Shown here piece by piece: positions 40,860 to 53,630 of a DNA stretch of 64,000 bases; position 1 is the stretch's first letter, and each line of letters starts with the position of its first letter. This stretch comes from Escherichia coli (lineage in GTDB: Bacteria; Pseudomonadota; Gammaproteobacteria; Enterobacterales; Enterobacteriaceae), in assembly GCF_013315695.1 (NCBI RefSeq), contig NZ_CP054353.1; one strand, 5' to 3'. A program made the position numbers and the translations under genes. Below the pieces are notes generated by a model. That model did not search any database, was not told the DNA's origin, and saw nothing but the letters and a program-made list of their open reading frames with translations.

Positions 40860-41024
40860 TTCAAACATCTCCCCAAGTCTACTAAAGTCTTTCAAAACCC
40901 CTTATAATCCGCGTATTAAAGCCCCGTTCGTCTTTTGACGTCTACTAAAGTCCCTCAAAATCTACGGTCAGATGGGGGTACTTATGGGGGTATTTGCTGT
41001 TCGGTTTAGTGGAGGTACCCCCAA

Positions 41025-42239
41025 GTGAAACTCAATGCCCGTCAAATAGACACAGCCAAGCCAAAAGAGAAGGCTTACAAGCTGGCCGATGGTGGCGGTT
41101 TGTATCTCTTGGTAAAACCTAATGGAGGTAAATACTGGCGACTTAAATATCGTGTAGCTGGTAAAGAGAAGCTATTGGCACTAGGTGTTTATCCTGAGGT
41201 TACTCTAGCCGATGCTCGGGCAAAACGTGAAGATGCGAAAAGAGGTATCGCTGGTGGTATCGAACCGATGGAAGCGAAACGAGAGGAAAAGATTGCCCGG
41301 GAAACGCAGTTAAACAACACCTTCAAAGATATTGCCCTTGAGTGGCACAGCAGCAAATTAAAAAAATGGTCTGCTGGTTATGCTTCAGACATCCTCGAAG
41401 CCTTCAACAAAGATGTGTTCCCTTACATTGGCAAAAAACCCATCGCCGAAATCAAACCACTTGAACTTCTGAATGTGCTGCGTCGCATCGAGGGGCGCGG
41501 TGCTACAGAAAAAGCCAAAAAAGTGAGGCAACGGTGCGGGGAAGTTTTCCGCTATGCAATAGTCACTGGTCGCGCAGAGTATAACCCTGCACCAGACCTT
41601 ACTAGCGCGATGCAAGGCCATGAATCTAATCATTACCCTTTCCTTACAGCCAAAGAATTACCTGATTTTTTCAAGGCATTGTCCAGTTACTCAGGAAGCG
41701 CATTGGTTGTTATGGCGGCTCGTCTACTGATTATCACCGGCTTGCGGACTGGCGAACTACGTGGCGCATTATGGGATGAAATTGATTTCAACAAGGCTAT
41801 CTGGGAGATACCCGCTTCACGTATGAAAATGCGGCGGCCTCATATTGTGCCATTGTCTGAGCAGGCTCTTTCGCTTATTGGGAAGATTAGAGAAATAACA
41901 GGCAATTACCCTCTTATGTTTCCCGGGCGCAATGATCCAAGGAAAACAATGAGCGAGGCCAGCATAAACCAAGTGTTTAAGCGCATTGGCTACGCTGGAC
42001 GTGTAACTGGTCATGGGTTCCGGCACACTATGAGTACGATTTTGCATGAGCAGGGCTATAACACTGCGTGGATAGAAACGCAGCTCGCTCACGTTGATAA
42101 GAACTCAATTCGTGGCACATACAACCATGCGCAATATCTGGATGGAAGGCGGGAGATGCTTCAATGGTATGCCGACTATATGGATTCTCTCGAGCATGGC
42201 GGAAATGTGGTGCATATGGTGTTTGAAAAACACGCATGA
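41025..42239 (+). CDS. int: Tyrosine site-specific integrase (P4-type)
   Basis: 404 aa, GTG start with GGAGG SD; N-terminal arm-binding-type region (GGGLYLLVKPNGGKYWRLKYR) and C-terminal catalytic R-H-R-Y region (HGFRHT ... RGTYNHAQY). Confidence 0.85.
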   Translation: MKLNARQIDTAKPKEKAYKLADGGGLYLLVKPNGGKYWRLKYRVAGKEKLLALGVYPEVTLADARAKREDAKRGIAGGIEPMEAKREEKIARETQLNNTFKDIALEWHSSKLKKWSAGYASDILEAFNKDVFPYIGKKPIAEIKPLELLNVLRRIEGRGATEKAKKVRQRCGEVFRYAIVTGRAEYNPAPDLTSAMQGHESNHYPFLTAKELPDFFKALSSYSGSALVVMAARLLIITGLRTGELRGALWDEIDFNKAIWEIPASRMKMRRPHIVPLSEQALSLIGKIREITGNYPLMFPGRNDPRKTMSEASINQVFKRIGYAGRVTGHGFRHTMSTILHEQGYNTAWIETQLAHVDKNSIRGTYNHAQYLDGRREMLQWYADYMDSLEHGGNVVHMVFEKHA

Positions 42240-42890
42240 AACAACTGGACAAGTATACAGAGGTTTACTAAAGTATAAGGGAGTAGATTGATAAAAACTC
42301 ACAGAGGATTGCTATTTAACAGTTAGCCATGGAGAAGGGCAATCGCTCTTTTAACAACGAAGATGGAATCTTCTACGCAGCTGAAAAGCTGGATGCTCTT
42401 TAACAGCCTTTGGTGCTTTTCTGATGCAGGAAAGAATAGGGATACATGCACCTTTACAATGCATGTAATGATTCATCCATGAGGCTGCGGAGCGCTGACA
42501 AAGCGCAATTGCTCTTTAACATTGATGTGGGCGGGATGGTTCGTCCCGCAGTGACCGATAGATTTCTATCGGGAAACATACAATGATTCAAATATGAATC
42601 TACGGCGCTGACAAAGCGCAATTGCTCTCTTGCCTGCCCACCATGCCCTGAAAAAGGGCGTTCTTTAAAACTACTGGATGTCACGCCTAATAGCGTGATC
42701 CTGCCGAAATGCAGGGTAGCTCTACCCTTGTGGAGCAAACAAACCAAAACAATCTGACTATCTTTTATAAAAGACCGCAATATGTTTTTCATATTGTGGT
42801 CTTTGGCGTATTCGACATTTGACGCAAATAAAACTCTCGCCATTCGTTGCAGGAGGGGGTTATTGCGTCATTAGTACAGGATATTAATAA

Positions 42891-51079: not shown

Positions 51080-51541
51080 ATGGAACTAAAATTTATTGAT
51101 AACCCTGTGCGATTACAGGCCTTTCTTAACGAGCCAGGCAATACCGAAAATATTGTTGAGCCGGGGCACACGTACTACATCAAGCCTGATGCGGTATATC
51201 TCGGCATCTACGAAGGATTAGTGCTGGCTGGCGTTCATGAAGTGCGTAACTTCTGGCATAGCGTTGTTGAATGCCATGCGGTGTACGACCCCGGATTCCG
51301 TGGTGAATATGCACTGCAAGGACATCGATTATTCTGCAAATGGCTTCTCGAAAACTCACCATTCCTTAACAGCATTACCATGGTTCCTGACACCACGAAA
51401 TACGGACGGGCAATTATCCGTTTGCTTGGCGCTACCCGTGTTGGTCATCTTGATGATGCTTATATCAGATGTGGTAAACCCGTCGGCGTAACGCTTTATC
51501 AGTTAACTCGGCAACAATATAAGGAATTCAGCGAATGTTAA
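51080..51541 (+). CDS. Hypothetical protein (candidate virion-associated protein)
   Basis: 153 aa; first of three tightly coupled same-strand genes. Confidence 0.4.
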   Translation: MELKFIDNPVRLQAFLNEPGNTENIVEPGHTYYIKPDAVYLGIYEGLVLAGVHEVRNFWHSVVECHAVYDPGFRGEYALQGHRLFCKWLLENSPFLNSITMVPDTTKYGRAIIRLLGATRVGHLDDAYIRCGKPVGVTLYQLTRQQYKEFSEC

Positions 51542-52212
51542 TTACCCATATAGCTTATAAACATCTCAATCGTGCCGTATACGAAAAAGGCGGTGATGGT
51601 GGTGCCTCTAAAGCTCAGGCGAAGGCCCAGCAGCAGGCAATTGATTTGCAGCGCGAGCAGTGGAATACGGTGATGAATAATCTCAAGCCGTATGCAGAAG
51701 TCGGATTGCCTGCTTTACAACAACTACAAGGACTGATGACTCTGGAAGGGCAGAATAAAGCCGCGAATGATTTCTTTGGTTCTGGTTTATATAAAACACA
51801 GGCAGATCAGGCCCGTTATCAGAACCTTGTCTCAGCAGAAGCTACCGGGGGGCTTGGCTCAACAGCTACCAGTAACCAGTTATCTTCCATTGCGCCCATG
51901 CTTTATAACAATTGGCTCAGTGGGCAAATGCAAAATTATGGAAACCTGCTAAATGTCGGGATGAATGCGGCATCAGGGCAGGCAACAGCAGGGCAAAACT
52001 ACGCCAATAATACCGGACAACTCTTGCAGGGGCTTGGCGCTATTCGTGCAGGTCAGGCGCAGCAGCCATCCAGTCTTGCGCGTGGTATTGGTGGGGCGGC
52101 ATCAGGCGCTTTAGCGGGTGCGCAACTTGGTTCCGTTGTTCCGGGTATAGGTAATGTCGCCGGGGCTATTGGTGGTGGGCTTATTGGTCTTGTTGGGGGG
52201 CTTGGATTCTAA
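51535..52212 (+). CDS. Hypothetical protein with Gly-rich hydrophobic C-terminus (candidate phage ejection/internal protein)
   Basis: 225 aa; Gln/Asn-rich middle, C-terminal GxxxG-rich tail (GIGNVAGAIGGGLIGLVGGLGF). Confidence 0.4.
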   Translation: MLITHIAYKHLNRAVYEKGGDGGASKAQAKAQQQAIDLQREQWNTVMNNLKPYAEVGLPALQQLQGLMTLEGQNKAANDFFGSGLYKTQADQARYQNLVSAEATGGLGSTATSNQLSSIAPMLYNNWLSGQMQNYGNLLNVGMNAASGQATAGQNYANNTGQLLQGLGAIRAGQAQQPSSLARGIGGAASGALAGAQLGSVVPGIGNVAGAIGGGLIGLVGGLGF

Positions 52213-53630
52213 TGGCGACATGGCAACTTGGCGGGCTGCCTAGCATGGCACCGCAAAATGATAATGCTCCTCGTTCTTCCGTTCCTCAGCCTGTGCAGTA
52301 TCAGCAGCAGCCAAACGTAGGTTTAATGGCGCTACAGGGGCTAAGAGGCGTTGCTGAGATTAATCAGCAGGCACGTCAACAACAGCGTAAAGCAGAGTTT
52401 CAGAAAGCATATGCCGGGGCTTTTGAGTCTGGAGACAGAAACAAAATGCGCAGTCTTATTTCTGAGTATCCAGAAGAATTTGAAAGCGTTCAGAAAGGGA
52501 TGGGCTTTATTGATGACGACCAGAGAAATTCTATTGGTCATCTTGCGACTAGTGCTCAAATCGCATCTTCGCTCGGAACTGGGGCATTTGGAAAATTCAT
52601 AGCAGATAACGAAGATGAAATGCGTCGTTTGGGAATTTCTCCTGAGTCTGTTGCCGAAATGCATGTTAATGATCCACAGGGATTCCAGCGGCTTGCTGGT
52701 AGTATGGCACTGTTTTCTCTCGGTCATGAGAAGTACTTCGATATCAAAGATCGAATGGAAGGTCGGGATATTGAGCGTGGCAAGTTGGCAGAGACGATCC
52801 GCAGCAATCAAGCCGGAGAAGCACTTCAGGCGAGAGGGCAGGATATTAGCCGAGCAAATGCGTTAACGTCAGCATATGCACCAACAGCCGCAATGCAGAA
52901 TTACAATCAATACGCGCAAATGTTAAAGGCGGATCCAGAGGGGGCTGCGGCATTTGCGGCAGCGGCTGGAATTAATACAAACGCCAAAAAATTAATGAGT
53001 GTTAGAGAAAACGATGATGGCACTGTCACAAAATACTACACAGACGGAAGTGAAGAGCAGGGAAAACTAAACCAGCCAATATCTGGAGATGGGTTTCGTC
53101 CAATAGCTTTGCCAACAGCCCAAAAGATCATGGAAAAGTCGCCAGAAGGGGCTAAAAAAGCTGCTGGATTTGCATACAGAGTTAGGGATGCTCTTGATTC
53201 AATAGATACACTGAAAGACCAGCTTAGCCCACAGCGAGTGGCGATCATTAATAATGCTTTGGGTAATGGGACGCTGGCTAACTTAACGCTCAGCCCAACA
53301 GAGCAGCAATACGTTGTTAATGCTAATGACGCAATAATGGCAATACTCCGTCAGGAAACAGGGGCATCTATCCTACCAGCTGAAATGTCCAAATATTATC
53401 AAATGTATTTCCCTCAGCCTGGTGATTCCACAAAAACCATTGATACCAAGCGTAGGAAGATGGAAAACCAGTTCAATTCGCTGAAAGCTGCTTCTGGTCG
53501 AGCTTATGATGCTTTGCGGGTTATTTCAGCAGTTGACAGAGGAACTTCTTCTTCGTCGCAGACATTGCCGCAATCTGAGCAGGTATCACAGCCAGCAGTA
53601 ATTTTTCTTCACTATGGGGTGATTAGGTAA
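52212..53630 (+). CDS. Hypothetical protein (candidate phage ejection/internal protein); 3-prime end runs into IS1
   Basis: 472-aa ORF whose last codons and stop lie inside the IS1 terminal repeat (IS1 begins 53626). Confidence 0.4.
   Translation: MATWQLGGLPSMAPQNDNAPRSSVPQPVQYQQQPNVGLMALQGLRGVAEINQQARQQQRKAEFQKAYAGAFESGDRNKMRSLISEYPEEFESVQKGMGFIDDDQRNSIGHLATSAQIASSLGTGAFGKFIADNEDEMRRLGISPESVAEMHVNDPQGFQRLAGSMALFSLGHEKYFDIKDRMEGRDIERGKLAETIRSNQAGEALQARGQDISRANALTSAYAPTAAMQNYNQYAQMLKADPEGAAAFAAAAGINTNAKKLMSVRENDDGTVTKYYTDGSEEQGKLNQPISGDGFRPIALPTAQKIMEKSPEGAKKAAGFAYRVRDALDSIDTLKDQLSPQRVAIINNALGNGTLANLTLSPTEQQYVVNANDAIMAILRQETGASILPAEMSKYYQMYFPQPGDSTKTIDTKRRKMENQFNSLKAASGRAYDALRVISAVDRGTSSSSQTLPQSEQVSQPAVIFLHYGVIR

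Follow-up and report, generated by a model that had tools for sequence, protein, structure and literature searches.

The closest described relative of the element considered here is the satellite EcCIMP1. It is a phage-inducible chromosomal island (PICI) of the commensal Escherichia coli strain MP1, 19,963 bp long and inserted at tRNA-Thr between proA and yagU, with TCCTATTATC as its attachment (att) core (Pick, Stadel & Raivio, ISME J 2025, PMC11773190; GenBank OR778291). Excision and circularization of EcCIMP1 depend on the induced P22-like helper phage Kapi1. Both int and alpA are needed for excision; alpA is helper-induced and is required for transfer too. Kapi1 transduces the island at low frequency, approximately 5e3 particles per ml. 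EcCIMP1 clusters apart from other E. coli PICIs (PMC11773190). The window analysed here is a stretch of 64,000 nucleotides of an E. coli chromosome (contig NZ_CP054353.1), and the gene string that follows its tRNA-Thr gene, thrW, is very probably the left 12.8 kb, some two-thirds, of a Gram-negative PICI of the EcCIMP1 type, in a copy that has been split and immobilized through the insertion sequence IS1. The element is already known: it is a variant of a published, experimentally characterized satellite.

The chromosomal order in the window is proB-proA, then tRNA-Thr(CGT), then a plus-strand string of co-oriented genes. The left boundary is defined by two features.

40784-40859, plus strand: tRNA-Thr(CGT) gene thrW (ARAGORN; Rfam tRNA)
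40843-40852, inside the 3' end of thrW: attL core TCCTATTATC, the same as the EcCIMP1 att core and present as a single copy in the window

Insertion in the thrW 3' end, the TCCTATTATC core and the proA-thrW-yagU site are those of EcCIMP1. Window positions 40700-42412 and 42660-52372 align with EcCIMP1 of MP1 at 98.0-98.3% nucleotide identity. The gene order from int to gp7 is that of MP1, the proteins are mostly 97.5-100% identical and many RefSeq protein accessions are held in common; the exceptions are the Ash region (63%) and h87 (90%). The AlpA, DUF4222, Icd-like, h73, h200 and h53 proteins are identical. An initial annotation of this DNA had recognized an integrase, AlpA, an antirepressor-like gene, a primase and an iteron origin at tRNA-Thr, and all are present where it placed them. 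Its assignment to a P4/PICI-like satellite is borne out by the approximately 98% identity to a validated PICI at the same site. At least 80% of a 13.8-kb element query is found in 160 of 5426 complete E. coli genomes, and the window matches strain MSB1_4I at 100%.

Several points weigh against so close an assignment. The gp20 allele is 48% identical to that of MP1 over the N-terminal 188 aa, and gp16 has no detectable similarity to its counterpart, being 701 aa here and a 906-aa transglycosylase-domain protein in MP1. The 63% identical Ash-region allele and the spacer between int and alpA are further differences. EcCIMP1 itself is not a confident PICI in SatelliteFinder, its authors assigning it to 'Type C #var01' (PMC11773190). 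The regulation proposed below for a C4-like RNA draws on family membership and on complementarities of 8-9 nt, and the behaviour ascribed to the element of this strain is extrapolated from MP1.

The copy in the window differs from the intact MP1 island in being cut by an inversion between IS1 copies, with attL and attR inverted relative to each other about 30.7 kb apart. Three IS1 copies bear on the locus.

53626-54393, minus strand: IS1 copy A, terminal repeats located, inserted at the gp20/gp16 junction
57129-57896: IS1 copy B, adjoining a cut-down ecpC
Source-genome locus L004, 5274-6041, beyond the window: IS1 copy C

The right end at 53625 given in the initial annotation is the insertion point of copy A (53626-54393). 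The same annotation had proposed that an attR might be found beyond the IS1. A search of the window with the 10-nt core, and with the 25-nt 3' end of the tRNA at a tolerance of 3 mismatches, returned no second copy in 64 kb. An attR core does exist in the fetched source genome, at record positions 4060317-4060326; it lies in the orientation opposite to attL and would sit near window coordinate 71,500, approximately 7.5 kb beyond the window end. The right 6.3 kb of the element is inverted and lies outside the window. This detached half comprises, in order, IS1-C, the 701-aa gp16 homologue, three hypothetical genes, PerC, a pRiA4b-ORF3 gene and the attR core, all genes being oriented opposite to those of the window. 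In strain EC-10, which is without the IS1, the att core recurs 18.2 kb downstream, just before yagU. The locus is thus not a complete element of approximately 20 kb with direct attL and attR, a form found intact in EC-10 and MP1.

The 9-bp flanks of IS1-A differ: GGGTGATTA (53617-53625) precedes it on the gp20 side and GAATAAACG (54394-54402) follows it. At IS1-C the same pair recurs, with GAATAAACG to its left and GGGTGATTA to its right, next to the gp16 start codon; gp16 directly follows IS1-C as it follows gp20 in EC-10, where the uninterrupted junction reads GGGTGATTA-ATG. The swapped flanks, 9-bp target duplications, show that two IS1 insertions recombined as inverted repeats, flipping about 30 kb. 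The inversion occurred by homologous recombination between IS1-A and IS1-C. With attL and attR facing in opposite directions, the window copy cannot excise as a unit; it is dead as a mobile element, and its excision and transfer are expected to be impossible. Loss of ecpR, ecpA and ecpB, together with the ecpC 5' end, accompanies IS1 copy B, and the three copies together reshape the thrW-ykg region.

The integration zone comprises the integrase and alpA genes and the sequences around them.

40877-40889 and 40940-40952, plus strand: two direct GTCTACTAAAGTC copies between attL and int (k-mer self-match scan)
41025-42239, plus strand: P4-type tyrosine integrase, reading away from the tRNA (PHROG integrase, E 1e-77)
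42405-42665: variable spacer between int and alpA, where the alignment with MP1 stops at 42412/42417 and restarts at 42660
42891-43094, plus strand: alpA, excisionase/regulator and master activator of the PICI cycle (PHROG, E 3e-11), 100% identical to alpA of EcCIMP1

The integrase is 99.75% identical to that of EcCIMP1, and the GTCTACTAAAGTC pair may be candidate arm-type sites for it. The spacer measures approximately 245 nt here, in place of about 15 nt in MP1 and EC-10, and its full form occurs in just 31 of 5426 genomes. It holds repeated GCTGACAAAGCGCAATTGCTCT motifs and is overlapped by a 129-aa minus-strand open reading frame (ORF; 42454-42843).

The late zone begins downstream of the origin. 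It was compared across 54 loci of other Enterobacterales species, collected with the primase as query, and across sister elements of E. coli. Four genes of the window belong to it.

50902-51063, plus strand: h53, 53 aa, heading the zone; 42-78% identity downstream of the primase in about 25 loci, no PHROG match
51080-51541, plus strand: homologue of P22 gp14 (DUF2824, head morphogenesis; phrog_651, E 1e-66)
51535-52212, plus strand: homologue of the P22 gp7-type ejection protein (phrog_598 'DNA ejection', E 2e-69), 57% identical to the Kapi1 protein
52212-53630, plus strand: homologue of the P22 gp20-type ejection protein (phrog_917, E 5e-110), 'frameshifted' in RefSeq

The last three, at 51080-53630, had been missed by the initial annotation. 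At a guess, h53 encodes a ribbon-helix-helix regulator. The gp14 homologue is the only late-zone protein close to phage genes, with 84% protein identity (Kapi1_055) and about 91% DNA identity to Kapi1. The last 10 or so codons of the gp20 homologue are frameshifted and its end abuts the IS1; over residues 1-462 it is 99.35% identical to the EC-10 protein. Searches of PDB sequences with gp14, gp7 and gp20 found no solved relative.

Homologues of gp14, gp7, gp20 and gp16 in P22 gene order on one strand, at a tRNA gene where P22 itself integrates, might be taken for the remains of a decayed P22-like prophage, or for a satellite that a deletion accidentally joined to late genes of an adjacent P22-like prophage. 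The MP1 authors also first scored their region as an incomplete prophage (PMC11773190). Such an origin is nevertheless most improbable. The window lacks terminase, portal, scaffold, coat, tail, lysis and cI/cro genes; set against the Kapi1 gene map, the four homologues and a 107-nt terS fragment are all that is P22-like. The integrase is of the P4 type and transcribed away from the tRNA. The junction of primase, origin, h53 and ejection genes recurs in sister elements, whether next to yicC or within a lambdoid prophage, with either gp14-gp7-gp20-gp16 or gp20-gp16 alone after h53; its presence at other integration sites shows that the module did not arise by chance at thrW. Among deposited phage proteins the nearest to gp20, APSE gp20, reaches 53% identity and the nearest to gp16 67%, which argues for long residence in satellites. 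Finally, EcCIMP1 excises precisely with its ejection genes included (PMC11773190). Late-gene capture from helpers has been described before for the PICI late zone (Mageeney et al. 2023, PMC10111431).

The sister elements (510016; CX21, Ecol_244) have the same Bro, replication and ejection modules with other integrases and sites. Two adjoin yicC. One lies inside a lambdoid prophage beside a cut-down DNA-methyltransferase gene and a Q antiterminator gene, and may represent a helper-embedded arrangement. In other genera the 53-aa gene is followed by tape-measure homologues (584-1136 aa) or by transglycosylase-bearing 'injection/internal virion' proteins. A delivery-type gene stands after the 53-aa gene, or after a 108-aa ORF between the two, in Klebsiella, Lonsdalea, Pluralibacter, Chimaeribacter, Erwinia, Pectobacterium and Raoultella. 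The delivery-protein genes, each with its position in the retrieved locus, are as follows.

L009, 17561-20557: delivery-protein gene
L013, 14436-16190: delivery-protein gene
L015, 15133-17724: delivery-protein gene
L018, 14632-18042: delivery-protein gene
L028, 15301-17124: delivery-protein gene
L030, 19416-21950: delivery-protein gene
L041, 17563-19389: delivery-protein gene

From ten proteins, the family defined by the primase has an apparent bias towards DNA-delivery proteins of helper type. This habit, if confirmed, suggests that satellites customize genome injection, a step seldom linked to satellites.

Between the antirepressor-like gene and the primase lies a block of short ORFs with overlapping starts and stops. 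The initial annotation put its length at about 4 kb; the block exists, with a size of 3.2 kb (44371-47567). The features from alpA to the primase are these.

43094-43525, plus strand: h143, a family-core protein, found by tblastn in 30 of 54 related loci (26-row alignment)
43538-44371, plus strand: AntA/AntB-type antirepressor-like ('Bro network') protein (PHROG anti-repressor Ant, E 2e-37; RefSeq annotation)
44364-44546, plus strand: DUF4222 small protein (RefSeq; phrog_285), conserved in many related loci
44540-45607, plus strand: 355-aa 'ash family protein' ORF (RefSeq), running antisense through the terminase fragment and covering both RNA genes
44921-44998, plus strand: isrK-like RNA, relative of P4 seqA (Rfam RF01394, 67.8 bits against a gathering threshold of 50, E 4.5e-14)
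45061-45148, plus strand: C4 antisense RNA, P4 CI-type immunity RNA (Rfam RF01695, 79.9 bits against a gathering threshold of 45, E 9e-16, full-length)
45202-45396, plus strand: Icd-like gene, 100% identical to the MP1 'host cell division inhibitor Icd-like protein'
45390-45607, plus strand: h72, restricted to Escherichia
45600-45794, plus strand: h64, restricted to Escherichia
45791-46054, plus strand: h87, also in some other genera
46051-46272, plus strand: h73, also in some other genera (phrog_20558 match)
46265-46867, plus strand: h200, a family-core protein found by tblastn in 29 related loci
46878-47219, plus strand: h113, in 18 related loci by tblastn
47212-47583, plus strand: h123, apparent paralogue of h113, restricted to Escherichia

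The block contains a predicted RNA immunity module. The isrK-like RNA ends in a terminator hairpin and T-run, with a terminator-like site at 44978-44992, and contains TCTGAAGG (44962-44969), which is complementary to the loop of the C4 RNA, TCCTTCAGA at 45104-45112. The Shine-Dalgarno region of the Icd-like gene, TCTGAAGGAGG (45184-45194), has 9 nt of complementarity to the same loop through TCTGAAGGA, as read from the sequence. The C4 RNA was found by blastn in 15 related loci, and in P4 the CI RNA is likewise embedded in a Bro-network gene (PMC10111431). On these matches, the two RNAs and the Icd-like gene constitute a putative immunity module of the P4 cI/seqA or P1 c4-icd type, and about 0.5 kb of the block is RNA-immunity sequence. 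The 355-aa Ash ORF is probably over-called. Pfam Phage_ASH covers residues 124-232 alone (44909-45235), a segment spanning both RNA genes; the ORF overlaps the Icd-like gene out of frame, and its end corresponds to the separate 72-aa ORF (45390-45607). The same stretch in MP1 is annotated as an Ash pseudogene and an Icd-like gene. The annotation is corrected in two respects: the 'Ash family protein' largely overlies two regulatory RNAs and an antisense fragment of a small-terminase gene (terS), and the small-gene block belongs to the family core rather than to cargo.

The initial annotation had taken the small genes for cargo with helper-interference or anti-phage functions. Most of the block proteins have no assigned function, and EcCIMP1 adds to superinfection immunity against Kapi1 through a gene that was not assigned (PMC11773190), so that a cargo role has something to recommend it. 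Moreover h72, h64 and h123 were found by tblastn in the Escherichia locus only, in the 54-locus comparison, and h113 and h123 are both absent from some E. coli sister elements (L076, L078, L079). Accessory cargo is nonetheless an unlikely description of the block. The skeleton int-alpA-h143-Ant-DUF4222-Ash/C4-Icd-h200-h113-primase-iterons recurs among the 54 loci, though not in each, and up to 30 of them share one arrangement of h143, DUF4222, Ash/C4, Icd, h200 and h113; this conservation across genera marks these genes as family core rather than variable cargo. As far as the primase, every ORF reads in the same direction and its start overlaps the preceding stop, as in an early or replication operon, and 0.5 kb of the block is taken up by the RNA sequences. 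PADLOC reported no defence system among the ten ORFs from h143 to h123; its only matches were a partial one to the candidate family PDC-S22 in the C-terminus of the Ant-like protein (E 4e-11) and two marginal CARF matches in h64 (E approximately 0.008), which are taken as noise. NCBIfam found nothing on ten ORFs, and the EcCIMP1 authors found no defence system by PADLOC or DefenseFinder (PMC11773190). The truly variable part of the family is the late zone, downstream of the origin. It is the stretch from gp16 to PerC, not the small-ORF block, that looks like a variable accessory spot. This stretch holds an Abi-family protein and hypotheticals in EC-10 (L002 26843-30400) and other hypotheticals in MSB1_4I (L004 8176-10056).

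Structure prediction of the small ORFs, also proposed initially, was informative in part. The AlphaFold 2 model of h143 has a mean predicted local distance difference test (pLDDT) score of 79, with residues 31-140 mostly above 80. Its top Foldseek matches are all MarR/SlyA/MepR-type regulators, albeit at E 7e-3 and a template-modelling score of approximately 0.35; this is a weak hint that h143 may have a winged-helix DNA-binding fold. The h200 model is confident (pLDDT 90) and has no informative structural neighbour and no solved relative. By visual comparison of their translations, h113 and h123 resemble tandem paralogues; other genera have just one h113, which adjoins the primase gene.

A further segment lies antisense to the Ash ORF.

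44688-44803, minus strand: terS-like fragment, homologous to nt 268-374 of the P22-type small-terminase gene 3

The fragment is 86-89% identical to terS of Lederbergvirus phages (E approximately 1e-29; megablast, blastn), among them P22, ST64T, BTP1, g341c and the Escherichia phages Louie, E212 and APC_JM3.2. All of the alignments run from gene 3 nt 268 to nt 374 (107 nt; 116 nt in the window). Nucleotide 268 is the first base of the packaging (pac) site gaagatttatctgaagtcgtta as annotated in the g341c record, and three deposited P22-type genome records begin within a few bases of the match start, at their positions 4, 9 and 24. The pac-equivalent of the element is GAAGGTTTTTGTGGAGTCACTA, which agrees with Louie/E212 at 17 of 22 positions and with P22 at 16 of 22. 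In relation to the pac site within P22 gene 3 (Wu et al. 2002; PMC11226127), the element resembles the phage in that homology runs from the first base of the 22-bp site for 107 nt in the packaging direction and falls inside the zone of about 120 bp where P22 terminase makes its initiating cuts; it differs in these core mismatches and in one position that violates the published pseudo-pac pattern, of which GAAGGTTTTTGTGGAGTCACTA fits 16 of 17 positions. A scan of the window for that pattern with 1 mismatch allowed gave 5 matches against 3.85 expected. Since this is chance level, the pattern by itself supports nothing and the case for a pac site rests on homology.

The fragment may be a captured packaging-initiation signal for helpers with a P22-type small terminase subunit (TerS), a tentative proposal with somewhat less than an even chance. 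The competing explanation, to which an even chance is given, is a functionless scar of past P22-like recombination, or simply coding sequence for the N-terminus of the Ash ORF product. On the plus strand a reading frame stays open across the fragment, and several genomes have it annotated within 'Ash'. The 16/22 agreement with P22 pac favours a scar as well, as do the chance frequency of pseudo-pac matches and the pattern positions missed, one in allele A and two in allele B. The one proven helper, Kapi1, encodes a TerS of another type (142 aa), shows no similarity to the fragment and is dissimilar to EcCIMP1 outside gp14 and gp7; its terS region gave chance-level short matches alone against EcCIMP1, which indicates that no Kapi1-type pac copy is present. 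Other features of the fragment weigh against a scar. Its boundaries are the same in all eight Escherichia copies examined, with the start exactly at pac nt 268. The 401-nt stretch containing it is found at 80% coverage or more in 483 of 5426 genomes, and fragment-bearing elements occupy at least three integration sites, including thrW, yicC and a lambdoid prophage. Of the two satellite alleles, A is closest to the APC_JM3.2/P22-type terS and B to the Louie/E212 type; their divergence is 14.7% within the fragment, compared with 4.3% and 6.4% in the flanking sequence, a pattern that a passive scar would hardly be expected to produce.

Two other roles were considered and set aside. A functional TerS gene is rejected because just a 38-codon ORF is left in the TerS frame, as read directly from the sequences. 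An antisense effect on the terS mRNA of the helper, which would require the Bro operon to read through, ranks below the pac proposal, since a satellite with no terS of its own needs that of the helper. In strain 510016 the fragment was called independently by PGAP, as a 'DNA-packaging protein' pseudogene. Within the set of relatives examined, it is confined to the Escherichia elements, which are those carrying P22-type ejection genes; it is absent from other genera, where homology with relatives stops at about 44857.

The pac-like fragment and the ejection genes may belong together. On this joint proposal, which is put forward a little more tentatively than the pac function itself, these satellites would be doubly adapted to P22-like phages, carrying a captured helper pac with approximately 85 nt downstream of it and also supplying their own diverged ejection proteins gp14, gp7, gp20 and gp16. 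Helpers with a P22-type TerS, such as prophages like Louie, E212 and APC_JM3.2, would then package satellite concatemers directly, with no need for a satellite terS. The EcCIMP1 authors state the packaging mechanism as unknown and transfer by Kapi1 as very low, and they found a Kapi1-like prophage in just 2 of 21 carrier strains (PMC11773190). Kapi1 having a different TerS type, the joint proposal would account for the poor transfer. The element has no terS, rpp or capsid gene of its own, and the terS-derived fragment with its pac-equivalent is a candidate for a packaging function. Two EcCIMP1 copies (39.9 kb) would roughly fill a head that normally holds the 39.4-kb Kapi1 genome, which would fit headful packaging of concatemers. 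The fragment offers a concrete candidate cis signal for the packaging question of EcCIMP1 and a predicted class of better helpers. Such a piece of terS, with its first base coinciding with that of P22 pac, is possibly new. As an element the locus adds little, being a broken copy of a satellite published in 2025.

The replication zone ends in a primase gene and an adjoining origin.

47570-50326, plus strand: TOPRIM and DUF927 primase/replicase, 918 aa (phrog_1139 DNA primase, E 2e-178; RefSeq 'TOPRIM and DUF927 domain-containing protein')
50352-50453: iteron origin, directly after the primase stop codon, with GTTGGTTCA twice in direct orientation, an AT-rich spacer and three inverted copies

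The primase is 99.5% identical to that of EcCIMP1, and homologues 53-83% identical occur in 53 loci of other species. All 5 occurrences of the 9-mer GTTGGTTCA in 64 kb fall within 50352-50453, against 0.43 expected; 0 of 100 shuffles reached 5. The iteron stretch is kept right after the primase gene in 39 other-species loci. Co-oriented int, alpA and primase/replicase genes with an adjoining origin are as expected of a PICI. Seven more GTTGGTTCA iterons form a second cluster in the detached right half, immediately upstream of the PerC-family gene (L004 10171-10300; also L005 10745-10793). Many relatives have a second, inverted iteron block 6-9 kb past the first, which recalls ori/crr of P4.

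A four-zone scheme and matches to the C4/isrK models have been described in Gram-negative PICIs (Mageeney et al. 2023, PMC10111431), and the genes of the window are laid out accordingly: an integration zone of int and alpA; a Bro/immunity zone of h143, AntA/B, DUF4222, the isrK-like and C4-like RNAs under the 'Ash' ORF, and the Icd-like gene; a replication zone of small coupled ORFs, the TOPRIM-DUF927 primase and the iteron origin; and the start of a late zone with h53 followed by the P22-type gp14, gp7 and gp20 homologues. The following course is proposed. (i) In the quiescent state, the C4-like RNA would pair with the isrK-like leader and the ribosome-binding site of the Icd-like gene, keeping the downstream Icd-to-primase operon off until induction, as do CI of P4 and C4 of P1. 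(ii) As shown in MP1, lytic induction of the P22-like helper turns on alpA, excision of EcCIMP1 at the TCCTATTATC core requires both AlpA and Int, and the circle is transferred in helper particles (PMC11773190). (iii) The primase would fire the iteron origin. (iv) The satellite would be packaged as headfuls of approximately two copies. (v) In the window copy, an IS1 entered the gp20/gp16 junction, and recombination with an inverted second IS1 then moved gp16, PerC, the second iterons and attR outside.

Compared with the Gram-negative PICIs EcCICFT073 and EcCIEDL933 (PMC10111431), the element has the same int-alpA pair, Bro zone with C4/isrK RNAs, primase with origin, and dynamic late zone of captured helper late genes; its right half also holds a PerC-family gene. 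It differs from them in having no terS, rpp/ppi, capsid or cos module and in carrying homologues of podovirus ejection proteins in its late zone.

Likeness to P4 extends to the integrase type, to CI/C4 RNA immunity with a seqA/isrK-like target in a Bro-network ORF, to a primase followed by iterons, and to the second distant iteron cluster recalling ori/crr. With its AlpA, TOPRIM primase, two iteron clusters and CI/C4-type RNA with isrK partner, the element might even be placed in the P4 family proper. That placement is very unlikely. Among the PHROG matches of all element ORFs there is no psu, delta, sid or epsilon homologue, the late zone has podovirus ejection proteins instead of P2-directed capsid-size and transactivation genes, and the proven helper is a Lederbergvirus, a P22-like podovirus, not a P2-like myovirus (PMC11773190).

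A further parallel is provided by the immunity loci of temperate phages. The immI region of P1 and P7 has the order c4-icd-ant, and Gifsy-1 has an IsrK locus. As in these, a C4-family antisense RNA lies directly upstream of an icd-like gene whose ribosome-binding site complements the loop of the RNA, and both are preceded by an isrK-family element. The element differs from P1 and P7 in what follows the icd-like gene, namely small ORFs and the primase and not an antirepressor gene. The output under control is therefore probably replication, as it is in P4.

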